From an uncultured Acidobacteriaceae bacterium (lineage in GTDB: Bacteria; Acidobacteriota; Terriglobia; Terriglobales; Acidobacteriaceae), in the NCBI GenBank assembly GCA_963701935.1, contig CAVPBT010000005.1:189098-253097 (forward strand): 64,000 nt of DNA, in the 5' to 3' direction. The notes under the pieces were generated by a model. That model was not told the origin of the DNA, made no database searches, and saw only the letters and a list, made by a program, of their open reading frames with translations. A program made the translations under genes and the position numbers. Position 1 is the first letter of the stretch. Every line of letters starts with the position of its first letter. Shown here piece by piece: positions 8,305-31,420 of the stretch.

Positions 8305-10083
8305 TTATGCCACCACTGAAGTATCCGCCTCCCGATATAGCTCGTCGATCTGCTCGCGATAGCGCGCCTCGATCGCCTTGCGCCGAAGCTTCAACGTTGG
8401 GGTCAGAGTGCCGTCGCTGGCGGTAAATTCATCCGGCACTAGCAGGATCTTTTTCAGCGTCTCGTACCGGGCCAGGCCACGGTTCAGTTCGTCCACAATA
8501 CCTTCATAAAGTGCCTTGACCTTGGGGTGGGCCACCAGTTCTTCGCGGGATGAGAAAGATATTTGGTTGCCGCGCGCCCATTCCTCCAACAACACGAACT
8601 CCGGGGAGATAATCACCGACGCAAATTTTCTTCGGTCTCCCAGCACCACCGCAGTTCCAATCATCGCGTTGAGTTTCAGCGAATTCTCGACCGGCTGCGG
8701 CGCAATAAATTTCCCCCCCGACGTCTTCAGCAGATCTTTTTTGCGATCGGTCACCGACAGAAATCCGTCTTCGTCCAGATTGCCAATGTCTCCGGTCTTA
8801 AACCAGCCATCCACGAAGGCGTCCCGCGTCTCTTCGGGCCGGTTCCAATAGGCACGGAAAATCGAAGGACCGCGCACCAGAATCTCCAGATCGTGCGCAA
8901 TCTGCACTTCAACATTGGGCAGGGGACGGCCCACGGTGCCCATCTTGTGAGCGTGCGGCGTGTTGATTGCGATGACCGGTGAGGTCTCCGTCAGACCATA
9001 GCCTTCATGAATCCGAATGCCGATGTTCGCATACCATGCTGCCAGTTCTCTGCCCAGCGGCGCTCCTCCGGAGACGAATATTTCCACTTGTCCACCCATC
9101 CGCGCCCTGACCTGCGAATACACGAGTTTGCGCGCCAACTTCCACGCCACTGATGCCGGCTCCTTGCCCGCCAGAATCTTAGGCCGGTGGGCCCGTCCTA
9201 CGGAAAGAGCCCAACGGTAAATGGTCTGCTTCGCCAGTCCTTTGGCTTTCTGTTCCACCTGGCTGTAGATCTTTTCGTACACACGTGGCACGGCCACGAA
9301 AATCGTGGGCCGGACCTCCATTAACACTTGCGGCAACTCCTCGATGGAAGGGCAATATGCCAGCGTCACGCCGTTATGCAGCAACGCGATATCCGCATGA
9401 CGCGCCGTAACATGCGACAGAGGAAGAAACGACACACTGACGTGGCCAGGATGAATATCGAAACCGTGCAAAGAGTTCAGCACATTCGAAGTCAAATTCC
9501 CATGCGTCAGTTGTACGCCCTTTGAGGTTCCAGTCGTCCCTGACGTATAGATGATGGACGCGAGGTCGTCAGGAGCGACCGCGTGCGCGCGGGCATCGAG
9601 TTCTGGATCTCGTCCAGCCGGGCCCTTGTGCATCAGTCGCTGCATATGTACCGCATCAGGGGTCTCGGCAGGATCCATCAACACGATCTTCTCGATCGGA
9701 GTCTGGTCGCGGATGGACAGGACCTTTTCCAGTTGCTTCTCCGTGGACACCACCACCACTCTTGCTCCTGAATCGCAAAGAATGTAGGCGGTTTGCTGAG
9801 CCGTGAGGGTCGAGTAGATGGGCACAACCGCAAGCCCCAGCATCAGCGATGCAAAATCGGCGACAGCCCACTCCGGCCGATTCTCGCTTAAGATGGCAAG
9901 GCGGTCCCCCTTGTTCAACCCCCACTGGCTGAGCGCCCGCGCCACACCCGCCACATCGCGGTAAAACTGCTGCGAGCTGATGGGAACCCACGCGGAGCCC
10001 TCGCGAGCCAGCATCACGCGATCTTGCCGGCGCTCCACGATGGCGAAGAAGATGTCATTAAGAGTCTGAGGTTTCGTAGGCAT
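8305..10083 (-). CDS. long-chain fatty acid-CoA ligase (AMP-binding family)
   Basis: It carries AMP-binding motifs IYTSGTTGTSKGV, GYGLTETSP and DRKKDLLKTSGGKFIAPQ. I moved the start to the ATG at 10083, which is preceded by GAGGGGGA. Confidence 0.85.
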   Translation of the reverse strand: MPTKPQTLNDIFFAIVERRQDRVMLAREGSAWVPISSQQFYRDVAGVARALSQWGLNKGDRLAILSENRPEWAVADFASLMLGLAVVPIYSTLTAQQTAYILCDSGARVVVVSTEKQLEKVLSIRDQTPIEKIVLMDPAETPDAVHMQRLMHKGPAGRDPELDARAHAVAPDDLASIIYTSGTTGTSKGVQLTHGNLTSNVLNSLHGFDIHPGHVSVSFLPLSHVTARHADIALLHNGVTLAYCPSIEELPQVLMEVRPTIFVAVPRVYEKIYSQVEQKAKGLAKQTIYRWALSVGRAHRPKILAGKEPASVAWKLARKLVYSQVRARMGGQVEIFVSGGAPLGRELAAWYANIGIRIHEGYGLTETSPVIAINTPHAHKMGTVGRPLPNVEVQIAHDLEILVRGPSIFRAYWNRPEETRDAFVDGWFKTGDIGNLDEDGFLSVTDRKKDLLKTSGGKFIAPQPVENSLKLNAMIGTAVVLGDRRKFASVIISPEFVLLEEWARGNQISFSSREELVAHPKVKALYEGIVDELNRGLARYETLKKILLVPDEFTASDGTLTPTLKLRRKAIEARYREQIDELYREADTSVVA

Positions 10084-10167
10084 GGTTTCCCCCTCACGTC
10101 GCGAAAGGAAGATCATCCGCCGTCCTGAACCGGTGGTTGCGAAGAGCTCTTCTACGTTACTGCTCCG

Positions 10168-10863
10168 CTACTTGAGATGACCCCAGCGAAATGTCGGGCC
10201 AACAGAGAAGCGAATATAGTTCTGCCGGGGTACCAGCAAGTTTGAAAACAGGTGAGTGTTCACCCAATCAGTCGCGAACCGCACGCCAATCTTCCGCGAC
10301 ACGTTGAGGTCGAACCCCCCGCCTAAGCCAAAGAACAGTTCGGTATCGCTCTGATGCGAGTTGGGAATTGGAATCTGCAGGTACCCAAACAAGGGCACCA
10401 GAGGGCTGGGGAAAGCTATATTTGCATTCTCGTGGATTCCGCCAAAGCCGGGGCGTGCAAAGAATGTAACTTTCTGCCACTTGCGCAGGTAGAATTGCGG
10501 TCCTGCGGCAAACGTGTAAGTCCTCGACTTAAACGCCACGGAGATTGAGCTTGCTCCCCCAGGCACTAGTCCCGACTGGTTTATCGCGTTAGCGTAGACG
10601 GTCTCGCTGCCGTTAATGGTTCCGGCACCGCTGATGACGCCGTCGCCCATAATCCCGAAGTCACCGCCCAGACCCAGCCAAGGTCTCACCGTAACTCCGA
10701 AATCCGATTCAAATCCGCGCTCGGTCAGGTTGCGGGCCGGGCTGATCATGTAATCGAAGCCGGTAAACAGTGTGTAGCGGTTAATGTCGGTCTGCTGCGC
10801 CAAAGCGGGCAGACAAATAAGAACTATAAAGCCGCAAAACAGTAAACGTCTCATCGGTCTCAT
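10168..10863 (-). CDS. small outer-membrane beta-barrel protein (OmpW/OMP_b-brl-like)
   Basis: The ATG at 10863 follows AAAGGTGG. The signal peptide is MRPMRRLLFCGFIVLICLPALAQQ. The rest shows an alternating Gly/aromatic-rich beta-strand pattern. Confidence 0.65.
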   Translation of the reverse strand: MRPMRRLLFCGFIVLICLPALAQQTDINRYTLFTGFDYMISPARNLTERGFESDFGVTVRPWLGLGGDFGIMGDGVISGAGTINGSETVYANAINQSGLVPGGASSISVAFKSRTYTFAAGPQFYLRKWQKVTFFARPGFGGIHENANIAFPSPLVPLFGYLQIPIPNSHQSDTELFFGLGGGFDLNVSRKIGVRFATDWVNTHLFSNLLVPRQNYIRFSVGPTFRWGHLK

Positions 10864-11032: not shown

Positions 11033-12631
11033 CTACGCGACAATCAATTGGGTCAGAGGATTCTCCTGCATGGTCGCTGGACCGGGCTCGAGCACTCTTT
11101 TCGGTTCCAGCAGAGCAATATTGCTCGCCGCTGGAACCGGTGCGACCGCGGTCTTTGTTATTGCCGGCATAGCGATTGAATTCCCGCGCCGTCTCCGGCG
11201 TACTTTCTTCTTCTGCGGTGGCCCGATTCCAACCGAGTCGCGCAATTCCGTGAAGCTCGTCATCAGCAAGCTCTCCAGCCGTCGCAGATCCGGGGCCGCA
11301 TGCACATCTCCACTGAAACCGAAGTAAACCGCGCCGTTGTAGCTTAAGATTGCGCAGTTCACCGCCATCTCTCCGCCCACCGGAACATACGGATAGCAAT
11401 GCAACATCTTGTGTCCGAGCAGGTAGAGCGGAAACTGCGGCCCGGGCACATTCGTGCATACCAGGTTGAAGGGTGTGATGGGCAGTTGGCTCGCGATCGG
11501 ACCGGCCATGCCTTGCACGGAAGTCGGGAACATCCCAATCAGACCGCCCGCCAGGCTAACGAGTTCAGCGGCGTGCACGCGCTTCAGGAATTCGGTTCGA
11601 TGGTGTACGCCTGCCAGCAACTTTCGCGGGCTCCGAATATCTAGCGGAATGGTGACAGGAACCAGCGAAATGCGGTTCCCCAACTCCGTGGTGCTGACGT
11701 CGCCGCGCAAGTTGACAGGAACCATGATCCGAAGCAGTTTTCCCTTCACGCGGTCGCCATGCAGTTCACAGTAACGGCGGATGGTCGCAGTCACCAAAGC
11801 GAGAATCACATCATTGACACTGGTTCCGCTCTTATGACGGATGGCTTTGACGTCCGCCAGCGGAAGTTCGGCGGTGGCAAATTTCTGAGGCCCGGTATAG
11901 ATCACGTTGAACCGCAGTCGCTCGGTAAACGCCGTGATCTCGGGTAGCAGGCCCACAAACTCGTCGCTGGCCACGCTGTCGCCGTTCGCAGCGGCACGTT
12001 CCGTCATGCTCAACAGATCGGTGAGTGCGGAGAGAATCCGCTTCACGAAATCAGAATAGGATTCAACGAACCCTGCGGTCAGCGTCGTCAGCGGGTCGCG
12101 CGGCCGGGGAACCTGCAACTTAATCTTCTTCTTGGGCAAGCGCGGCGCGTCCGGGCTCGCATCCAGAAGCACATTCATGATGCCGACACCCGCAATGCCA
12201 TCCGCCAGGCAGTGGTGCAGTCGGATAATGAGCCCGGTGCGAGCCCCCTTGAGCCCGTGAATGAGTGTGAGATCCCACAATGGGTGTTGCCGGTCCATCA
12301 CGGTGCCAAAAAGCTTTCCGGCAATCCCCATCAACTCTATTTCGGTACCGTGTTTGAGCGTCACCTCGCGCACGTGACGGCGCACATCGAATTCCGGATC
12401 GTACTCCCAACTGGGAAGCCCGAGCCCGAACGGTGCTGGTACGACGCGCTTCAGATAGCGAGGAAGAAGCGGCAGCTTCGTCTCGATGAACTGGACGCAT
12501 TCTTCAAATCCAACTTCGCCCTCGAAGATGCATACGCTTGCTACATTGAGCGGCATGCCTTCCCGCTCAAGATGCAGGAAGACCGTATCACCCCAGGAAA
12601 GGCGGTCACTCTGTTGCTGGTTCTGCATCAC
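11033..12631 (-). CDS. wax ester synthase/diacylglycerol acyltransferase (WS/DGAT)
   Basis: 532 aa. It has the active-site HHCLADG (HHxxxDG) motif, N-terminal ...DTVFLHLE... and C-terminal ...NVPGPQFPLYLLG... typical of the family. Confidence 0.85.
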   Translation of the reverse strand: MMQNQQQSDRLSWGDTVFLHLEREGMPLNVASVCIFEGEVGFEECVQFIETKLPLLPRYLKRVVPAPFGLGLPSWEYDPEFDVRRHVREVTLKHGTEIELMGIAGKLFGTVMDRQHPLWDLTLIHGLKGARTGLIIRLHHCLADGIAGVGIMNVLLDASPDAPRLPKKKIKLQVPRPRDPLTTLTAGFVESYSDFVKRILSALTDLLSMTERAAANGDSVASDEFVGLLPEITAFTERLRFNVIYTGPQKFATAELPLADVKAIRHKSGTSVNDVILALVTATIRRYCELHGDRVKGKLLRIMVPVNLRGDVSTTELGNRISLVPVTIPLDIRSPRKLLAGVHHRTEFLKRVHAAELVSLAGGLIGMFPTSVQGMAGPIASQLPITPFNLVCTNVPGPQFPLYLLGHKMLHCYPYVPVGGEMAVNCAILSYNGAVYFGFSGDVHAAPDLRRLESLLMTSFTELRDSVGIGPPQKKKVRRRRRGNSIAMPAITKTAVAPVPAASNIALLEPKRVLEPGPATMQENPLTQLIVA

Positions 12632-12664
12632 TGCTCTCCCTCGATCATTCGCCCGGCGGGGCGT

Positions 12665-12952
12665 TCAGTTCACGAAAGAAAATCGCCCGGTCAGCTTCAT
12701 CAGCTTGAGGACTTTGTAGACGTCGACATTCACGTCGCGCAAAATAATCTTGACGCTCTTCTCATCGGCCACTCGGGCAAGCTCTTCCAAAGCCCGCACT
12801 GCACCCGAATCGATGCGTACTACGGAAGACAAATCCAGTACTGCCTCGCCTTCACTGCCGTCCAATTTCTCGCCCGCCTCGCGCAGGGCCGCAACCACGC
12901 GCGCTTCATCAATGTTCAGAAACACTGCATTCATTGCCATAGGCTCCGCCAT
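12665..12952 (-). CDS. STAS-domain protein (SpoIIAA/anti-sigma antagonist-like)
   Basis: 95 aa with the ...AVLDLSSVVRIDSGAVRALEELA... pattern. It lies 3 nt after the adhE stop and 33 nt before the WS/DGAT start. Confidence 0.75.
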   Translation of the reverse strand: MAEPMAMNAVFLNIDEARVVAALREAGEKLDGSEGEAVLDLSSVVRIDSGAVRALEELARVADEKSVKIILRDVNVDVYKVLKLMKLTGRFSFVN

Positions 12953-12955
12953 TCT

Positions 12956-15623
12956 TCAGACAGTAATGTGCTCGACGGTGCTGCTCACCGTCCCCGCACC
13001 TCGTCCTTCATAAGCCTTCCAGAACAACTCGACCAGTTCCGTCATCAGAGGCATCCGGGGGTTCGAACGCCACGACGGATCTTCAAACGCAATTCGGGCC
13101 AGTTCGGGGACGGCCCGTTCGAATTCCTCTTTGGAAATTCCCAGTTCAGCGATCGATCGCGGAAATCCCAACAAATCGAGCAACTGCTCTGTCGCCGCGA
13201 TCAGGTTGTTTACCTTTTCATCGACGGTATGTCCGCCCAGACTCAGCTGATCCGCGACCGTCGCGTACTTCTTGTGTGCCGTGTACCCTTTCGTGTAAGG
13301 CGACGGCATGAACTTGGTGGGGACCGCGGCGTTGTAAGCAATCACGTGCGGCAGCATGAGCGCGTTGGCGCGCCCGTGCGCGACGCCGAAGCGTGCTCCA
13401 AAAGCGTGAGCCAGGGCGTGGTTCACTCCTACCGAAGCATTCGAGAACGCCATCGCCGCAATGCAGGCGGCATTGTGCATCATAGATCGAGCTTCTTCAT
13501 CCCGGGGATGCTCATAGGCAATCGGCAGATACTTGAATACCAACCGAATCGCCTGCATGGCGCTGGAATCGGTGTAGGGCGAAGCATAGTTCGAAACTCC
13601 TGCCTCCAAGGCATGGGTCAGGCAATCAATCCCGGTATCCGCGGTTAAGCCCTTCGGCATGGTCATCACGAACTGCGGATCGACAATGGCGACATCCGGG
13701 GTCAGGGAGTAATCGGCCAGCGTGACTTTGCGCCCGCTTTCCTTGTCTGTCAGGACCGCGAACGGTGTGACTTCGCTTCCTGTGCCGCTGGTGGTTGAAA
13801 TCGCGATGAGTCTCGCCTGGTTCGCTTTCTCCGTTGGATAGCGCGCGACCCGCTTGCGCAAATCCAGGAAGGGCGCCGCCAGATATTCCAGATCGGCCTC
13901 CGGCGATTCGTACTTGAGCTTCATGATCTTCGCCGCGTCAATGACCGACCCGCCGCCCAGCGCGATGATCTGGTCCGCCTTATAGAAATTGAGCGCCTCC
14001 ACTCCCAACGCGATGACCTTCACTTCGGGCTCTGCATCCGGAATCACCTGCACATGGACGTGAGTCTTGGGACAGATGTGGCGCCGAACGATATCAACAT
14101 GTCCCATCTGCTCCAGGAGCGGGCTGGTCACGATGATGGTGGATAGCGACGGAAACTGCCGCAGGTTCTCCACCGCATTCATGTTGAAGTAGATCTGATT
14201 GGGAACCCGGAACCACATATGGTTTTGTGTCCTCCGAGCCACGCGCTTGATGTTGAGGTAATGAAAAACGTTGACATTATCGGTGGTGCTGTTGCCGCCG
14301 CCGGTTCCGCATCCGAAGGAAAACGTCGGCACCAGGTCGTTGTAAACCGCTCCCAGCGCTCCGATCGATCCCGGTGAATTGACGATGATGCGTCCCGCAT
14401 TGATCACTTGGCCAAATTTGCGAATGACCTCTTCGTTGCGCGAGAACACAACCGCCGTATGCCCAATTCCCCCGGCATGGTTCACGTCGACACATACTCG
14501 CAGTGCCTCAGCTACGGATTTCGCTCGATAGACCGCCAGTACCGGAAATAACTTCTCGACCGACAGCGGATGCTCGCGGCCCACACCCTGAATCGGCGCA
14601 ATCAGCAGCTTGGTATCAGGCTTCACCTTCAGGCCGACGAAGCGTGCGATATCAGCAAGCCTTCTGGCCAACCGCCATGGGCTGCATGAATCCGGTCTCC
14701 GGATCAATTACCGTGCGCTCGAGCAGCTTCGTTTCTTTGTCGTTGCAGATGTGTGCTCCCAGGTCCGCGAATTTCTTCAGCACGGCGTCATAAATCTCGT
14801 CGTCGATGACCACCGTCTGTTCAGACGCGCAAATCGTTCCGTTGTCGAACGTCTTGGAAACGATGATGTCCACCACGGCCGTGTTCACGTCGGCCGTCTT
14901 CTCCAAATAAACTGGCGTATTACCAGCCCCAACACCCAAGGCCGGTTTGCCGGAGCTGTAGGCGGCCTTGACCACGCCCGGTCCACCGGTGGCGTCGATC
15001 AGCCCGATATCCTTGTGCTTCATCAGGTAGGCGTTGTCGGGAAGCGTCGGCGATTCGAGGCAAGTAAACACGCCCTCCGGCGCACCGTGTTTCACGGCCG
15101 CCTCATACATGATCCTTACCGCTTCTGCACAGCAATGCCACGCCTTCGGGTGCGGACTGAAAATAACCGCGTTCCGCGTCTTGATGGCCATGATGCACTT
15201 GAACAAGACCGTGGATGTGGGATTCGTAATCGGAGTCAGCGAGAAGAGAACGCCGATCGGTTCCGCCATCTCGATCAAATTGCGCTCCGGAATCTCGCGG
15301 ATCACGCCGACCGTGCGCTTGTCCTTCACGTAGTTGTAGACAAACTCGCTGGCCACCATGTTCTTGATGACCTTGTCTTCCAGCACGCCGAGCCGGGTTT
15401 CCTCCACCGCCAGCCGCGCAAGATATTGAGCTTGTGCCAGCCCCGCCAGAACCATCGGTTTAACGATCCGATCGACATCCTCCTGAGTAAACTGGCTGAA
15501 CACCGCAGCAGCGGTTCTGGCCTGACTGACCAGTCCTTCGAGGTAGGCGATCCGTTCCGCGCTCAGACCTTCAACCGCCAGCGGAATTTGAACTCGTTCT
15601 TTTACGACGTCAGCTACGGTCAT
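12956..15623 (-). pseudogene. adhE: bifunctional acetaldehyde-CoA/alcohol dehydrogenase AdhE, interrupted by one frameshift (as sequenced)
   Basis: Two abutting ORFs (15623-14652, 323 aa; 14707-12956, 583 aa) overlap in different frames. The joined length is 2668 nt (3n+1). Motifs include GGIGHTAVVFS, GCGTGGGNSTTDNV and ISTTSGTGSEVTPFAV. The inferred junction is ...PMAVGQK/LADIARFVGLKVKPDTK. Confidence 0.85.
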
Positions 15624-15905
15624 CGCTTCCTCCGTTGGGCTTGTTCAGGAACGATCTGCCGCACGAGTGTGCATGGCTGGACATATCATCCGGATTAGCG
15701 TTCGGAGTCGGGACCTACCGCGTCTGTCGCGCGCACGAATCTCGCAATTCCATCGGAAATCGGATCATCGTGGGAGTTCGCGTCAGGTGTGAGAACAACT
15801 TCGGAGGTGTCGGCTGTCTGGGATCCGGGGAGCACGAGAGTTCAGCCTCGTCCCAAAGTAGAACTCCCAAACTTGGCTTGGTCAGCAACCACTGTCACGT
15901 GGCCC

Positions 15906-15921
15906 TGTGATGAACATCACA
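15906..15921. promoter_or_regulatory. CRP/FNR-family type palindrome TGTGATGAACATCACA
   Basis: A perfect TGTGA-N6-TCACA (also TGTGAT-N4-ATCACA) lies in the 356-nt gap upstream of adhE. Confidence 0.5.
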
Positions 15922-15979
15922 CGGTTTTCCTTGGGGCAGAAACACTACGGGTATCGGATTCGTGACACCTGCCGCGGCG

Positions 15980-17659
15980 TCAGCCCGCGAGGGAGCGTGT
16001 GGCAGTGGAACTCGCAGCCGTATCGGTCCACCGCGTCTCTCTCGCGGAAGGAATCAGACTCATCGCGCGCTCGGCCAACGCGGTGATCGTGAGACTGGGG
16101 TTGACCCCGAGATTGCTCGCCAGAACCGAGCCGTCGCAGATGTACATGTTGCGATAGCCAAAGACCCGATGATGATGATCGACGACACCGTGCTCCGGTG
16201 AATCGGCGATGACACAACCCCCAATGCAGTGCGCCGTGCCGGGAATATCAAATAGAATTTCGGGAAGCATGCTCATGGCTGTGCCCCCCGCGACGTCGGC
16301 AAATTTTCGGGCAAACTCGTTGGCCTTCGGAATGTAGGTTGGCACCTTATCGCCGCGACTCACCAGCGTCTTCGAGAACGGCCAGAACCACGACCGCTGC
16401 CACCGCATCTCAATATGCCCCTCGACCGCTTGCATGCAAAGGAGGATCGTAGCCTCCCGAGCCCAGCCCCATGGCCGAAACAAACGAAGAGCCTTGAGCG
16501 GGTGCAACAGCAGGTGACCCAGCATATTTTTCACCCACATCCCGATGCGCAAGAATCCGGGGCGGCCGTCGGTCAGCATCGTGGTGAGCAGACCCATAGT
16601 GTCGGAACCTTTTGGATACCGTACGGCCTCAATGTGCGTATGTTCGTCGATGTAGATGCCGGATCCGATCGCGATGCCCTGCGACAAATCGTCAACACAC
16701 CGCGGTACACGCGCACCGATGATCGATTCCGAGTTCGTGCGGACGTGTTTCCCTAGACGATCGCTGATGCGGGGCAGCGAGCCGTTATCCTTGAGCCGAA
16801 ACAGCAACTCCATCGTGCCGAGCGACGACGCGGAAAAAACAACCCCGCGGCTGGTCAGTCTCCGTGGTTGCCGTGACAGCCAAGACGTCGAACTCTCGGT
16901 TTGAACTGCGTACCCCGCGTTTCCGTCGCCCGCGCCAGGAAGGGGTCGCACGTTCACCACCTTCGTCTCCGGAAACACCACGGCCCCGTGTTTTTCCGCC
17001 AGATACAGGTAGTTGAGATCGAGGGTGTTCTTCGCGCCGTAGCGGCAACCCATCATGCAACCACCGCAGCCGGTGCAGGTAGTTCGCGGCGGACCCTCGC
17101 CGCCAAAATATGGATCAGGCGCCGTCTCGTTCTGTGCGCCTCCCTCCGCTGCCTGGAAGATGCCGACACGAGTGCGGTAAAACGTATGGTCGACACCAGC
17201 TATTTCTCCGGTCCTTTTCAGGAGTTCATCAGCAGAACCGAGAATGTTGTTTTGCGTTATGCCCAGCATGCGCGACGCCGTCTGATAATGGCGCGGCATC
17301 TCCGTTTTCCAGTCGGTCAAACCAGCCCATGATCCGGATTGCCAGACTTTGTCCGGCGGAGGCAGCAGAGTGGCGGCATACGTGATCGATCCTCCGCCAA
17401 CCGCACAGCCGTGGAAGATCGTGGCATGGCGGAAGAACCGCATATTGAAGAAGCCATGCAGCCCCATGCTCGGCCGCCAGAACCAGCGATGAATCGACCA
17501 ACTGGTGCGCGGAAATGAGAGGGGCGCCCAGCGGCGCCCCATCTCAATCACGGCAACCCGATATCCCTTCTCTACCAACCGAAGGGCGGAAACACTACCT
17601 CCAAAGCCGGACCCGATCACGATGAAGTCGAAATCAAATTTACGGCTACGAGCTGCCAT
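15980..17659 (-). CDS. GMC-family FAD-dependent oxidoreductase (cholesterol/alcohol oxidase-like)
   Basis: 559 aa. It has an N-terminal FAD fold FDFIVIGSGFGGSVSALRLVEKGYRVAVIEMG and a C-terminal ...HRVFGYRNMYICDGSV...NPSLTITALAERA. Confidence 0.85.
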   Translation of the reverse strand: MAARSRKFDFDFIVIGSGFGGSVSALRLVEKGYRVAVIEMGRRWAPLSFPRTSWSIHRWFWRPSMGLHGFFNMRFFRHATIFHGCAVGGGSITYAATLLPPPDKVWQSGSWAGLTDWKTEMPRHYQTASRMLGITQNNILGSADELLKRTGEIAGVDHTFYRTRVGIFQAAEGGAQNETAPDPYFGGEGPPRTTCTGCGGCMMGCRYGAKNTLDLNYLYLAEKHGAVVFPETKVVNVRPLPGAGDGNAGYAVQTESSTSWLSRQPRRLTSRGVVFSASSLGTMELLFRLKDNGSLPRISDRLGKHVRTNSESIIGARVPRCVDDLSQGIAIGSGIYIDEHTHIEAVRYPKGSDTMGLLTTMLTDGRPGFLRIGMWVKNMLGHLLLHPLKALRLFRPWGWAREATILLCMQAVEGHIEMRWQRSWFWPFSKTLVSRGDKVPTYIPKANEFARKFADVAGGTAMSMLPEILFDIPGTAHCIGGCVIADSPEHGVVDHHHRVFGYRNMYICDGSVLASNLGVNPSLTITALAERAMSLIPSARETRWTDTAASSTATRSLAG

Positions 17660-17698: not shown

Positions 17699-19492
17699 TT
17701 AAGCGACCACATACTTCCCGGTCTCGATGACTTTCTGGGCAATGGCCTGCCGCAGCGATACTGTGTTGAACGGCTCGTACTTGCACAGCCGCCGCAAAAT
17801 CGCCAGCTGCGACCGCAGCATGTCGCCATCGGCGCACGCGGCAATGACCATCCTCGCCGCGCTTTCGATCTTCTCCATCGCACCCGACATGTAGACGCGG
17901 GTCATCGCCACAGCGTGCCCTGACCCCGCTTCGCCATGCTTCGCGGCCAGTTTCTGCGCGCGCAGCACGGCGGACTCCATGGCATAGGTTTCGATCGTCA
18001 TGTTCGCGATCGCACCCATAATCTCCTGCTGATCCTGAATCGCCTGCATGTATTTCTGAGTCGCAATGCCGGCGGCGAAGAGGCCGATCTTCTTTGCCGT
18101 CGCCACCAGTTTGCGTTCTTGAGCAAGAAGCCCTTCCTCGCCCTCGTCTGACGTCCCCGACAGGACCTCATCCATCAGCTTCTTGATCGCCGCCATCAAT
18201 GGAAGTTGCCCAGACATGGCACGCTTCAGCAAAAAACCGGTGATGAGCAGCCGGTTGATTTCGTTCGTGCCTTCGAAGATCCGGTTCACCCTTACGTCCC
18301 GGTAGTTGCGTTCGGCGGGATATTCCTCGACGAACCCATACCCGCCGTAGATCTGCACCGATTCATCGACGACGTAGTCGATGAACTCCGATCCCCATAC
18401 TTTGAGAATCGAGCATTCCACGGCATATTCATCGATCACCTTGCGAACCTGCGCCATGTCTTTGTGCTGCTCCCCGAGTTGCGCAATAGCGGCATCCATC
18501 ATGCCGACGGTGCGATACGCCATGGCCTCCCCGGTGAAGATGCCTGCCGCCATGTTCGCCAGCTTCTCGCGGATCAAGCCGAAATCCGCAATCACTTTCC
18601 CGAACGCCTTGCGCTGCTTGGCATACGCGATCGCACTCTCAATGCAGTTCCGCGCTGAGCCCACGCATCCTGCACCCAGTTTGAACCGTCCCACATTCAG
18701 AACGTTAAATGCAATGTGGTGCCCCTTGCCGATCTCGCCAAGCACATTCTCCACCGGGACCTGGCAATCGTTGAGAATCAGTGGACACGTCGACGATCCT
18801 CGGATCCCCATCTTGTGTTCTTCCGCGCCCACCGAAAATCCCGGGAACCCGCGCTCCACGATAAAAGCGGTGAACTTATCGCCGCTCACCTTGGCAAACA
18901 CGATGAACAGGTCGGCGAACCCGGCATTGGTGATCCACATTTTTTCGCCGTTCAATACATAGTGCTTGCCGTCGGCCGACAACTTCGCCTGCGTGCGGCA
19001 ATTCAGAGCATCCGATCCCGACGATGACTCCGACAACGCATAGGCGCCGACAGTCTCCCCGCTGGCCAGCCCTGGCAGATATTTCTTCTTCTGTTCTTCC
19101 GTACCGAAGTAAACGATGGGCAGAGTCCCAATGCAGGTGTGAGCGCCCCACGTCGTGCTGAAGCCGCCGTACTTTGCGATCCGGTCCGCGATGATGGCGG
19201 AAGTGACCTTATCCATCTCCATGCCGCCGTACTGCTCGGGCACATCCACACCGCTCAACCCGAGTTCTCCAGCCTTCTTCACCAGTTCTCGGACAATGGT
19301 GAAGTTCTTGTGCTCCATGTTTTCAATGTTGGGAACGATTTCCTTGATGGCAAATTCTTCCGCAGTTTGGGCGATGAGTCGATGCTGCTCGCTAAAATCT
19401 TCTGGAGTAAAAACATCTTCCGGCGCCCGCTCCTCGATCAGGAAACTGCCGCCGCGGATCTTGCTACCCGGTATTGCAGTGACCGTAGCCAT
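17699..19492 (-). CDS. acyl-CoA dehydrogenase (long FadE-like form)
   Basis: 597 aa. The ACAD core includes ...GAYALSESSSGSDA...KMWITNAGFADLFIVFAK...YRDVRVNRIFEGTNEI..., followed by an extra C-terminal helical domain. Confidence 0.9.
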   Translation of the reverse strand: MATVTAIPGSKIRGGSFLIEERAPEDVFTPEDFSEQHRLIAQTAEEFAIKEIVPNIENMEHKNFTIVRELVKKAGELGLSGVDVPEQYGGMEMDKVTSAIIADRIAKYGGFSTTWGAHTCIGTLPIVYFGTEEQKKKYLPGLASGETVGAYALSESSSGSDALNCRTQAKLSADGKHYVLNGEKMWITNAGFADLFIVFAKVSGDKFTAFIVERGFPGFSVGAEEHKMGIRGSSTCPLILNDCQVPVENVLGEIGKGHHIAFNVLNVGRFKLGAGCVGSARNCIESAIAYAKQRKAFGKVIADFGLIREKLANMAAGIFTGEAMAYRTVGMMDAAIAQLGEQHKDMAQVRKVIDEYAVECSILKVWGSEFIDYVVDESVQIYGGYGFVEEYPAERNYRDVRVNRIFEGTNEINRLLITGFLLKRAMSGQLPLMAAIKKLMDEVLSGTSDEGEEGLLAQERKLVATAKKIGLFAAGIATQKYMQAIQDQQEIMGAIANMTIETYAMESAVLRAQKLAAKHGEAGSGHAVAMTRVYMSGAMEKIESAARMVIAACADGDMLRSQLAILRRLCKYEPFNTVSLRQAIAQKVIETGKYVVA

Positions 19493-20718: not shown

Positions 20719-21255
20719 ATGGCGTCCATGAAACCCTCAACCATCCTCGTCAAGAAGTACGGCAATCGACGGTTGTACGACACAACCAGCAGCCGTTACG
20801 TGAACCTTGACGATCTTGCGGCTCACATCCGCGCGGGCCGCGAGGTCAAAGTCGTCGACGCCAAGACCGGGCAAGACCTGACCCGCGTCCTGTTGACGCA
20901 GATCATCACCGAAGACGCCAGGGACAAGCCGACGGGCTTACCCCTGGAACTGCTGCGGCAACTCATCATCGCGTCCGATGAGGTGCGGCAGGAATTTCTC
21001 ATGTGGTATCTGAAGTCCGCGTTTGACACGTATGAGAAGGTGCAGGATGCCGTGCAGAACCGCCTGAGCGAGGTCCAGTCCGCCATCCTCTCCCCCGTCG
21101 ATATGATGAAACGCTTTCTGGGAACGGGCGCCTCTCCGCCTTCGCGCGCGGACTCGGAGCCGGAGGTTGAGGCCCTGCGCAAGCGCGTCGCGGAACTCGA
21201 GGCCCGTCTGAAAAAGCCCGCGCCCGCGAAGCGCCGCGCCCGCAAGAAGCATTGA
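20719..21255 (+). CDS. phaR: polyhydroxyalkanoate synthesis repressor PhaR
   Basis: 178 aa. The N-terminus ...ILVKKYGNRRLYDTTSSRYVNLDDLAAHIRAGREVKVVDAKTGQDLTRVLLTQII... is the PHB_acc_N/PhaR DNA-binding signature. Confidence 0.85.
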   Translation: MASMKPSTILVKKYGNRRLYDTTSSRYVNLDDLAAHIRAGREVKVVDAKTGQDLTRVLLTQIITEDARDKPTGLPLELLRQLIIASDEVRQEFLMWYLKSAFDTYEKVQDAVQNRLSEVQSAILSPVDMMKRFLGTGASPPSRADSEPEVEALRKRVAELEARLKKPAPAKRRARKKH

Positions 21256-29109: not shown

Positions 29110-30182
29110 CGTCGCGATGCTCCTTGCGCAATCCCAAGTTCGTCGCACGTCTCCTGAAGGGCGGTGAGCAACCGATCAGCATGCGCACGTGGCCCCAGCG
29201 TGATGCGCACGCATCCCTCGCACCCGTGGTCTCCCGACCGATCGCGAACCAGAATGCCGCGACGCCTCATATGCTCCACAAACGAAGTCGCCGCATCCAC
29301 GCGCGCCAGAACGAAGTTCGCCTGACTGGGCCAGAACTGAATTCCCATGCCACCGAGAACCTGCTCTAGCCGCGCCCGCGACTCCCAAACCTTACTCACA
29401 TATTCATGGATAAAGTCCTGATCGCCGAGCGCCTCCGGCAGACAAGCCAGCGCGACCGCGTTCACGTTGTAAGGTGAACTGACCCGCCGTACCGCCCGCA
29501 TCTGTTCCGCGTCGCCCATCAACGCGCCAACGCGCAGCCCCGCCATCCCGTATGCCTTGGAGAACGTCCTCGCCACAAAGAGATTCGGGAACTCGTTGCG
29601 CATCGGCAGCATGCTGTGACCGTAGAACTCGAAGTATGCTTCATCCACAAGTACCGCTGCACCTGTGGCGGCCTGAGCGATTCTCCGCAAATCTTCCGGC
29701 GGCGCAACCGTTCCCGTCGGATTATTCGGATTCGCCATGGCGACCAGCCGCGTGCGCGGCGTAATGCGCTTGCACACTTCGTCGCCAGGAAAAATGAAGT
29801 CCTCGCCAGCTGGAATGCTGATGACCTTCGCTCCCGCCGCCATCCCATAAATCCGGTACATCGAATATGTGGGCACCACGATCAGCGCCTCGTCGCCGGG
29901 CTCAAGGTAGGTTTCACACAGCAAATGAATCGCTTCATCCACACCGTTGGTCAGCAGCAACTCGCCCGCTGCAACGCCCAGCACGTCTGCCACGGCCGCC
30001 TCTACCGGCTCGCGCTCGGGATAGCGGGCAAGTTCTTCCGTGCCCAAGCGCCGCAAACGCTCCAGCACTCGCGGGGAGCAACCCACGGTGTTTTCGTTGA
30101 AATCCAATCGCAGCCCATCCCGCCCCGCAAGCGGCGGGTGATACAAAGGCAGCGTGCGCACCGCTTCTCGCGGACTAAGCAT
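29106..30182 (-). CDS. hisC: histidinol-phosphate aminotransferase HisC
   Basis: 358 aa, class-II aminotransferase. ...[15 protein letters not shown]... carries the PLP lysine. Confidence 0.9.
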
Positions 30183-31420
30183 GCTCGCACCTCACCCGGA
30201 CCGATTGCGCGTGCGCCGGAAGCCCCTCAGCGGTCGCGAGGCATTCGATAGCAGGAGCAATCCCGCGCAGCCCCTCGCCGGAAAGTCGCTGCACCGTAAT
30301 CACCTTCACAAAATCGGTCACGCTGAGACCTCCGCGAAATCGAGCCTGCCCCGAAGTCGGCAACACGTGATTGGGCCCGGACGCATAGTCGCCCGCCGCC
30401 TGCGCCGAATAGTCCCCCACAAACACGGAGCCCGCATTCTGAATGAACGGTAAGTCGTCCTCCGCAACGGTGATATGTTCAGGTGCAAGCCGATTCGCCC
30501 AATCCCGAGCCTGCTCTCGTGACTGCGCGACCAGTATTGCGCCCCGCGCTCGCAGCGACGCCTGAGCCGTTGAATTCCCTTTCGCAAGTTCCACCGCGCT
30601 GGCCTTCACCGACCTCGCCAGCCTGGGAGAAGTCGTGATCAAGACCGACAGCGTCTCCGGATCATGCTCAGCCTGCGCCACCAGATCCGCCGCGATGAAC
30701 TCCGGCACACCCGAGTGGCTCAGAACCACGGCTTCCGTAGGCCCTGCCAGAAAATCAATCGCGCAATCGAACGCGACCAGCTTCTTCGCCACCGTAACGT
30801 AGGAGTTTCCCGGCCCCACAATCTTGTCCACCCGCGGAATGCTGCTGGTTCCATACGCCAACGCGGCGACGGCCTGCGCACCCCCCACACGGTAGAACTC
30901 GCGCACACCCAGCATCGCGGCCGCAGCCAGGACTTCCGTCGATGGCTTGGGTGATACCACGCGGATGTTTTTCACCGCCGCAACCTGCGCGGGAATCACC
31001 GTCATCAGCAGAGTCGAAACCAGCGGATAGCGCCCGCCCGGCACGTAGCATCCCACCGACTCCAGAGGCCGCACGATTTGCCCAAGAGAAATCCCGTCGC
31101 GAGTCCGCATCCAGTCTCCGGGCTTTTGCCATTCACAAAAACGGCGGATATTCTGAGCAGCCTGCCGCAGCGATTTGCGCAACTTCGGAGAAATCGTCCG
31201 CAGCGCCGCCGCCATTTCTTCCTCCGACACTCGCAGAGGCTGTTTCTTTCTCAAGCCTATCCCATCGCTCCGCATACCGTCGAAGCGCTCGGTCCCCGCC
31301 CCGTCGCATGCTTTCCACGATGCGCCGCACTCGCGGTTCCAGTCGTTCAAGGTCCGCGCCTCGTGCGGCAAGACGATCCACCAGCGCAGCAGCCTTGCGA
31401 CCCGAAACGATCCGCATCAC
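30175..31420 (-). pseudogene. hisD: histidinol dehydrogenase HisD, one frameshift as sequenced
   Basis: The N-terminus MMRIVSGRK...RRYAERWD lies in the 31420 frame. The remainder, ...GLRKKQPLRVSEEEM... to the stop at 30175, lies in another frame. Removing base ~31258 restores RWDGLRKKQ. The total length is 1246 nt (3n+1). Confidence 0.85.

Follow-up and report, generated by a model that had tools for sequence, protein, structure and literature searches.

The adhE-STAS-WS/DGAT gene triad of peat and wetland Acidobacteriota, a candidate link between fermentation and neutral-lipid storage

The window analysed here is a stretch of 64,000 nucleotides (nt) of an uncultured Acidobacteriaceae bacterium (NCBI GenBank assembly GCA_963701935.1, contig CAVPBT010000005.1, positions 189,098 to 253,097 of the forward strand). 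It carries, one after the other, a gene for a bifunctional aldehyde/alcohol dehydrogenase (adhE), a small gene for a stand-alone STAS protein, and a gene for a wax ester synthase/diacylglycerol acyltransferase (WS/DGAT). The question raised by this locus is what holds these three genes together, and in particular which of the two enzymes the STAS protein serves. A first, sequence-only reading of the window had described a tight unit with gaps of 3 and 33 nt, and had offered two roles for AdhE, the supply of fatty alcohol for ester synthesis or a link between fermentation and storage. Its description of the unit is right in every detail. The four open reading frames (ORFs) of the triad (adhE is split in two in the assembly) are arranged head to tail, all on the minus strand. 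The adhE/STAS junction reads TGA-AGA-ATG, and the STAS stop is followed after 33 nt by the WS/DGAT start, a GTG with a ribosome-binding site of the GGGAG type. A terminator-like hairpin was found in neither intergenic gap of the triad. The three genes have the appearance of a genuine operon, and from their spacing they are predicted to be co-transcribed. A search of sequencing runs gave no RNA run, and no run that shared more than 15% of the sequence words.

Conservation and co-inheritance of the triad

The genome belongs with Ca. Sulfotelmatobacter-like Terriglobales, a group met in the soils of peat, bog, palsa and wetland, and a scan of species-representative genomes of this group gave 80 loci. 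The order adhE-STAS-WS/DGAT is kept at 78 of the 80 loci, and adhE is located directly upstream of STAS at all 80. The triad order was also found at 10/10 loci of nine relatives from the genus, in other genera of the family, and in 13 of the 15 most divergent family members, in which STAS identity is down to 40-57%. The gap between the adhE stop and the STAS start has a median of 3 nt (exactly 3 nt at 37 of the 80 loci), and the gap between the STAS stop and the WS/DGAT start has a median of 37 nt. This arrangement is far beyond chance. The phylogenetic survey that had been suggested for the adjacency was thus run, and the adjacency is strongly conserved. The STAS family is present in 89 of 401 family genomes, representing 41 of 142 genera, and the gene order is conserved across at least 41 genera. 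In-frame read-through from the adhE stop into STAS was considered and rejected; it is not conserved, and gaps of 2, 4, 5, 13, 14 and 16 nt also occur.

The genes for STAS, AdhE and the triad WS/DGAT are each present in exactly the same nine of 24 genus relatives. Orthologues of the PhaR-type regulator occur in exactly those nine triad-bearing genomes, mostly 5-15 kb from the triad; PhaR is about 8 kb from the triad in the window, and in the relatives it is mostly encoded on the triad's contig. This identical occurrence of triad and PhaR indicates that the triad forms the centre of an accessory island whose genes are acquired and lost together. The island is proposed to serve lipid storage in peat and wetland Terriglobales, and consists of the triad core together with fadE, GMC oxidoreductase, outer-membrane protein, fadD, PhaR and phasin-like genes. 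The flanking genes are variable, and the full set (fadE, GMC, fadD and barrel) is found at only about a quarter of the loci. The GMC gene is often found beside the triad; some lineages have it upstream, and others have it directly behind WS/DGAT or STAS. Two contigs with the triad (L103 and L106) belong to metagenome-assembled genomes (MAGs) labelled Ca. Binatia and Ca. Dormiibacterota, and share 65-90% identity with their acidobacterial counterparts at the level of the genes. These triads under other labels than Acidobacteriota suggest mis-binning, mislabelling or recent transfer.

Properties of the encoded proteins

The STAS protein matches PF13466 with 32.1 bits (cut-off 29.2) and PF01740 with 30.9 bits (cut-off 22.6). 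Its family is narrow: a search of 1.84 billion representatives gave only 281 clusters at E<=1e-10, nearly all of about 90 aa, and its members are annotated in the sources as 'anti-anti-sigma factor' or 'MlaB component'. The AlphaFold2 (AF2) model (pLDDT 86.9) has the order b-a-b-a-b-a-b, and the terminal helix is missing. The top Foldseek matches of this model are all STAS proteins, of every kind, and anti-sigma antagonists match as well as MlaB does. Among solved structures, MlaB is the closest in sequence to the STAS profile (E 1.5e-7). A DFSSVRRID loop and a VYKVLKL helix are near-invariant among the orthologues, and the equivalent loop and helix form the partner-binding face in known STAS complexes (PMC7367683); a conserved protein partner is therefore inferred. 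At the phospho-site (position 49, equivalent to Ser58 of SpoIIAA and Thr52 of MlaB) 82 orthologues have Pro (31), Ser (29), Ala (14), Thr (6) or another residue (2), so that a phosphorylation switch is not a conserved feature of the family. The copy in the window has Ser at this site. The statement of the first reading that no partner-switch kinase or phosphatase is near this stand-alone STAS protein is correct, since neither an RsbW-type kinase nor a SpoIIE phosphatase was found in the window. Such enzymes are encoded elsewhere in the genome, on different contigs or at a distance; the RsbW-like kinases number 2 and the SpoIIE phosphatases about 12. No kinase or phosphatase is among the genes identified at the 80+ related loci, which were scanned solely with the eight cluster proteins of the window. 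From sequence and structure model, the STAS protein is predicted to be a minimal MlaB-like accessory and not a partner-switch element.

Loci in which the triad has been rearranged bear on the partner of this protein. G085, which belongs to a different family, has the adhE-STAS pair and no WS/DGAT anywhere in the genome. The pair is also kept in G631, with WS/DGAT on another contig, in G680, with WS/DGAT about 7 kb off and divergent, and at L139, where the WS/DGAT gene has moved. In G013 a full STAS gene lies beside adhE, and WS/DGAT is found 12 kb away on the same contig behind a 30-codon 3' STAS remnant with an internal TGA (L173:6-1674, G013:C74). This remnant is the footprint of a rearrangement with its breakpoint inside STAS. 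A STAS-WS/DGAT pair without adhE was not seen at the loci examined. The persistence of adhE-STAS in rearranged loci therefore marks STAS as primarily a companion of AdhE, and AdhE is its likeliest partner. The earlier view of a STAS gene 'wedged' between two enzymes is accurate for its position; it does not describe its allegiance, as the gene stays beside adhE in genomes without WS/DGAT.

In two further families (G401 and G069), whose genomes contain no WS/DGAT, an AdhE of 47% identity is directly preceded by a STAS gene of a different, canonical kind. In G069 (L172:2939-7919, G069:C87) this STAS gene (121 aa) overlaps the adhE start by 4 nt, and 1 kb away the opposite strand encodes a sensor of 1174 aa that includes a SpoIIE phosphatase domain. 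The link between STAS and AdhE may thus exist in G069 in a phospho-regulated form. A search for relatives of G069 gave no close ones. A fused AdhE-STAS protein (P0157) is garbled by frameshifts and was discarded as an artefact. In P0159, from an ENA contig of 111 kb, the AdhE C-terminus runs cleanly into the STAS domain with no stop. Either a genuine fusion or a stop codon lost to a sequencing error could account for this. P0159 is a single, N-terminally truncated call and was rejected as a Rosetta-stone fusion.

The two pieces of AdhE are collinear with the NF010378 model, with no gap and no overlap. They score 426 and 700 bits; each is below the cut-off of 951 bits because the frame is broken in the assembly, and only their sum (1126 bits) exceeds it. 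The catalytic Cys is kept, with FDNGTICASEQ aligned to FDNGVICASEQ of E. coli AdhE. GIDCLTHALEA and VGVNHALAH align to the metal-site motifs, and the Asp and His residues of the Fe-site are kept. The best solved relatives are AdhE structures of the ethanol type (E. coli type). The AdhE proteins of the triad form a distinct acidobacterial subclade with clade-specific substitutions and with short N- and C-terminal extensions, and are about 45-48% identical to other acidobacterial AdhEs. AdhE has evolved much more slowly than STAS and WS/DGAT. On these sequence features AdhE is predicted to be a canonical acetyl-CoA/ethanol enzyme.

The reading frame of adhE is broken by an extra T at 14657/14658. 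This base is missing in 10/10 aligned relatives, all of which read through in one frame, and AdhE of the relatives is a single frame of 890-950 aa. Short-read wetland contigs of about 95% identity are likewise without 1 base at 14657. Apart from the break, adhE is intact and 85-95% identical to its relatives, and STAS and WS/DGAT are intact as well. Another gene of the genome, a NAD_binding_4 paralogue, is split by a single-base break. The hisD ORF (30175-31371) matches Histidinol_dh only from model position 34, its first 26 residues being off-family, a loss that is a further sign of indel errors in the assembly. The sister genomes are mostly long-read MAGs, several or many of them with genes in many pieces. 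Because the base is missing in relatives, a second gene is split, the N-terminus of hisD is lost and genes are fragmented in sister MAGs, the frameshift is read, with good confidence, as an indel of a long-read assembly and not as gene decay. A true inactivation of adhE in this strain, with the operon decaying, was judged improbable. It would agree with the presence of the extra base in the assembly, and the stretch 14576-14679, frameshift site included, is a gap in the coverage by contigs that match the strain exactly, which limits the case for an assembly error. The intact remainder of the three genes, the other single-base breaks in conserved genes of the assembly and the similar damage in sister long-read MAGs argue against inactivation.

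WS/DGAT scores 336.6 bits with TIGR02946 (cut-off 309.95), 158.9 with PF03007 and 92.7 with PF06974, and its acyltransferase motif HHxxxDG is present as HHCLADG. The C-terminal tail of about 70 aa (11033-11245 in the window) is basic (KKKxRRKR) and then Ala/Pro-rich in an alignment of 74 orthologues, and usually ends in (Q/E)E(N/K)xLTQLI(V)A. The candidate role of LTQLI(V)A as a docking peptide for STAS was not supported; G187 has STAS and lacks the motif, and G279 lacks both. The remark of the first reading that no fatty acyl-CoA reductase (FAR) is visible holds for the 64-kb window, where no FAR gene was found. It fails as a premise, since a classical reductase of 779 aa (HAD + NAD_binding_4 + Sterile) is encoded on another contig of the genome. 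This FAR also occurs in 21 of the 24 relatives from the genus, with or without the triad, and is not part of the island. Two FAR-type genes are in tandem at L146:781-3987 (G000:C8:473238-476444), the 779-aa reductase followed by a NAD_binding_4 gene that is split into two frames. The 779-aa FAR, which is core to the genus and independent of WS/DGAT, may serve ether-lipid or other alcohol needs.

A lipase-like hydrolase is encoded adjacent to PhaR, and in G279 PhaR abuts WS/DGAT. No polyhydroxyalkanoate (PHA) synthase of the PhaC_N type was found in the genome, which is 100% complete, and PhaR therefore probably governs neutral-lipid bodies. Storage is favoured as the function of the island because PhaR is co-inherited with the triad, a lipase-like hydrolase is nearby, no PhaC_N-type synthase was found and PhaR abuts WS/DGAT in G279.

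Proposed function and its alternatives

From gene neighbourhood, sequence and structure model, the triad is tentatively proposed to be an oxygen-limitation module that couples fermentation to neutral-lipid storage, with an AdhE-linked STAS accessory. The likelihood assigned to this proposal falls a little short of even. Of the two roles offered in the first reading, the evidence agrees better with a fermentation-storage link than with the supply of fatty alcohol. Under oxygen limitation, a promoter located within the long leader of adhE would switch on the operon. AdhE would convert acetyl-CoA to ethanol and re-oxidise NADH, and WS/DGAT would esterify acyl-CoA to diacylglycerol or to an alcohol. 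The neutral lipid would serve as a second sink for carbon and electrons, and would be laid down in bodies under the control of PhaR and phasin. STAS would be a stoichiometric, protein-binding accessory with a use like that of MlaB with MlaF, rather than a phosphorylation switch. AdhE would be its primary partner, and a further possible role is to hold AdhE and the acyltransferase together. The module possibly makes fatty-acid ethyl esters.

The adhE start is preceded, at a distance of about 295 nt, by an unassigned CRP-type palindrome (TGTGA-N6-TCACA). Of 32 loci, the 16 that have a GMC gene upstream keep this palindrome, at -289 to -313. It implies a long 5' leader and a regulator of the CRP/FNR family. 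In a related peat MAG, AdhE was reported to be up-regulated in anoxic microcosms (PMC6018796); the supplements of that paper mention neither adhE nor STAS nor wax esters.

Several points weigh against the proposed module. Spacing is the sole basis for co-transcription, as gene neighbourhood is for AdhE as the partner of STAS, and induction under oxygen limitation is deduced from one paper on a related MAG and from the CRP-type palindrome. The upstream STAS of G401 and G069 falls into another subfamily, matching the STAS profile at E about 1e-5, and these pairs may be ordinary partner-switch genes placed by chance. G279 is the sole lineage with adhE-WS/DGAT and no STAS.

The suggestion that AdhE reduces acyl-CoA to fatty alcohol was not supported by the analysis. 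AdhE would then be a fatty acyl-CoA reductase that gives long-chain alcohols to the wax synthase and replaces a FAR, as its position next to WS/DGAT, its co-inheritance with it and the distinct clade (about 45-48% identity to other acidobacterial AdhEs, with clade-specific substitutions) would allow. The summed score, however, is above the cut-off of the acetaldehyde-CoA/alcohol dehydrogenase equivalog, the catalytic and metal sites are intact, the closest solved relatives are of the ethanol type, and adhE-STAS pairs occur in genomes without any WS/DGAT. Because a FAR (the HAD-FAR-Sterile reductase, also found in 21/24 genus relatives) is present in the genome and AdhE is canonical, this role is very unlikely. 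The operon could also be a natural counterpart of 'microdiesel', dedicated to fatty-acid ethyl (or other short-chain alkyl) esters, with the ethanol of AdhE esterified by the co-translated WS/DGAT and STAS holding both enzymes. An ethanol pathway combined with WS/DGAT is the engineered route to fatty-acid ethyl esters, and several bacterial wax synthases take ethanol (PMC3309958, PMC3100327). adhE and WS/DGAT are co-inherited and parted only by the small STAS gene at 78/80 loci, and FAR lies outside the island and is found in genomes with and without the triad. This account was nevertheless considered rather unlikely, as known WS/DGATs prefer long-chain alcohols or diacylglycerol and nearly all genomes with the triad also possess a FAR; the adhE-STAS pairs in genomes without WS/DGAT also mean that ester synthesis is not the sole reason for the pair. 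An improbable elaboration of it is a natural ethyl-ester pathway of anoxic peat bacteria, in which a MlaB-like STAS would dock on AdhE filaments and couple the wax synthase to them, ethanol being trapped as neutral ester in lipid bodies coated with PhaR and phasin.

The island could also work in the catabolic direction, the GMC oxidase and alcohol dehydrogenase forming aldehydes, the aldehyde dehydrogenase (ALDH) domain of AdhE forming acyl-CoA, and FadE and FadD serving the beta-oxidation of alcohols or of the alcohols of wax esters, with WS/DGAT as a buffer for surplus acyl-CoA. The reactions of AdhE are reversible by established enzymology, and in this locus, as in many of the relatives, the triad has fadE, GMC, fadD and the small outer-membrane barrel on its flanks. 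The flanking genes are however the part that varies (the full set at about a quarter of the loci), while the triad, PhaR and the phasin-like genes are constant and point to storage. AdhE was moreover reported to be induced under anoxia, where beta-oxidation is unfavourable, and a catabolic role is quite improbable. For the STAS protein alone, an ordinary anti-sigma-factor antagonist could be considered, acting through one of the remote RsbW-type kinases and SpoIIE phosphatases and reporting the fermentative state to a sigma factor. The genome contains the necessary types of enzymes (2 RsbW-like kinases and about 12 SpoIIE phosphatases), the copy in the window has the Ser, the model matches anti-sigma antagonists as well as MlaB, and a SpoIIE sensor is near the STAS-adhE pair of G069. 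This reading is highly unlikely in view of the Pro or Ala at the phospho-site in 45 of 82 orthologues, the missing terminal helix of SpoIIAA-type proteins in the model, the closest sequence relative (MlaB), and the distribution of STAS, which was never found apart from adhE and is absent in the 15 of 24 genus relatives without the triad.

Comparison with known systems and neighbouring genes

The three families are each well known, and their fixed combination appears to be undescribed. Full-text literature searches gave nothing that joins STAS domains and wax ester synthases, or Sulfotelmatobacter and wax esters, and nothing on AdhE and STAS among the matches listed. The STAS protein of the triad is similar in size (95 aa) to MlaB (97 aa) of the phospholipid ABC transporter MlaFEDB of E. 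coli (PDB 6xbd, 6zy2, 6xgy). Both are truncated STAS proteins without the terminal helix (judged from the AF2 model and the description of MlaB in PMC7367683), and both are stand-alone accessories encoded beside the enzyme served, with no dedicated kinase or phosphatase. The triad STAS differs in having adhE and WS/DGAT as its neighbours at the loci examined, with no ABC ATPase (MlaF), in a patchy distribution that tracks AdhE and WS/DGAT rather than the envelope machinery, and in the equivalent of Thr52, which is mostly Pro, Ser or Ala. With SpoIIAA, RsbV and RsbS it shares the STAS fold (Foldseek TM 0.6-0.75) and a D-x-S-x-V-x-x-I-D loop. Compared with these proteins, it is shorter, without the last helix, the phosphorylatable residue is unconserved, and it is encoded in a metabolic operon with no kinase or phosphatase in the neighbourhood. 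The second-best Foldseek match is the STAS domain of YchM (DauA) with acyl carrier protein (ACP) (PDB 3ny7), a precedent for contact between STAS and the fatty-acid machinery. That domain is the C-terminal part of a SulP transporter and has 14% identity, and no ACP gene is present in the triad locus.

The AdhE of the triad shares with the spirosome-forming AdhE of the E. coli type (PDB 6ahc, 6tqh) the two-domain architecture, the catalytic Cys, the Fe-site residues and the summed NF010378 score. It differs in its own subclade, its terminal extensions, the STAS gene that always follows it, the WS/DGAT gene that usually does so too, and the extra base in the assembly. Engineered 'microdiesel' strains combine an ethanol pathway with an AtfA-type WS/DGAT (PMC3309958, PMC3100327), two activities that are predicted from the genes to be expressed together here. 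The pairing in the triad is natural and conserved, uses AdhE instead of Pdc/AdhB, and includes STAS.

Tgs1 of Mycobacterium tuberculosis is a hypoxia-induced triacylglycerol synthase of the WS/DGAT family, with DosR as its regulator. It resembles the proposed module as a WS/DGAT tied to oxygen limitation, with neutral lipid as a sink for carbon and electrons, the tie to anoxia being a deduction in the case of the triad. Tgs1 has no AdhE or STAS partner, and its regulator (DosR) is another one. The clients of STAS proteins so far are anti-sigma kinases, the MlaF ATPase and SLC26 transporters. If the proposal is correct, a metabolic enzyme (AdhE) joins this list as a new class of client. The module would then show how the abundant Acidobacteriota of peat and wetland handle fluctuating oxygen, by ethanol fermentation together with neutral-lipid storage. 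Ethyl esters, if formed, would be a new way of joining redox balancing with carbon storage, and the triad could be a natural, ready-made set of genes with which to make fatty-acid ethyl esters or wax esters. The module is a clean genomic marker, since in one family, with 142 genera sampled, it comes and goes as a whole in 41.

The features of the locus and of its neighbours are listed in Table 1.

Table 1. Features of the triad locus and neighbouring genes (positions in the window)
Feature	Position	Strand	Remarks
adhE, whole gene	12956-15623	minus	Split by one extra base at 14657/14658
adhE 5' part, 323-aa ORF	14652..15623	minus	N-terminal two thirds of the CoA-acylating ALDH domain; catalytic Cys in FDNGTICASEQ; NF010378 positions 11-310; E. 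coli AdhE 6ahc, E 2e-86
adhE 3' part	12956..14653	minus	ALDH end, linker and Fe-ADH (iron-type alcohol dehydrogenase) domain with conserved Asp/His metal site; NF010378 positions 311-867, PF00465, PF25137; AdhE structures, E about 1e-129
ORF holding the adhE 3' part, 583 aa	12956-14707	minus	Rest of ALDH and Fe-ADH domain
Frameshift site	14655..14662	minus	Extra T (A on the plus strand) at 14657/14658 in GCT(T)GCTGAT, giving TGA at 14652-14654
Stand-alone minimal STAS protein, 95 aa	12665..12952	minus	3 nt past the adhE stop; PF13466 and PF01740
WS/DGAT acyltransferase, 532 aa	11033..12631	minus	HHCLADG motif; TIGR02946, PF03007 and PF06974
adhE leader/promoter region, 356 nt	15624..15979	minus	TGTGA-N6-TCACA palindrome at 15906-15921; weak terminator-like hairpin at 15950-15969 after the upstream GMC gene
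GMC flavoenzyme, cholesterol-oxidase-type	15980..17659	minus	NF058674 ('cholesterol oxidase ChoxAB' equivalog), 884 bits, cut-off 850
FadE-type acyl-CoA dehydrogenase	17699..19492	minus	NF058590, 868 bits; syntenic in relatives
Small outer-membrane beta-barrel protein	10168..10863	minus	PF13505, 27.5 bits, just under cut-off; syntenic in a subset of loci
Long-chain fatty-acid-CoA ligase, FadD11-like	8305..10116	minus	Pfam and NCBIfam matches
PhaR-type regulator	20719..21255	plus	PF07879, E 3.9e-26

The outer-membrane barrel protein has its probable start at the Met before a predicted signal peptide (MRPMRRLLF...). The GMC flavoenzyme passes the cholesterol oxidase equivalog, although the host is a sterol-free bacterium.

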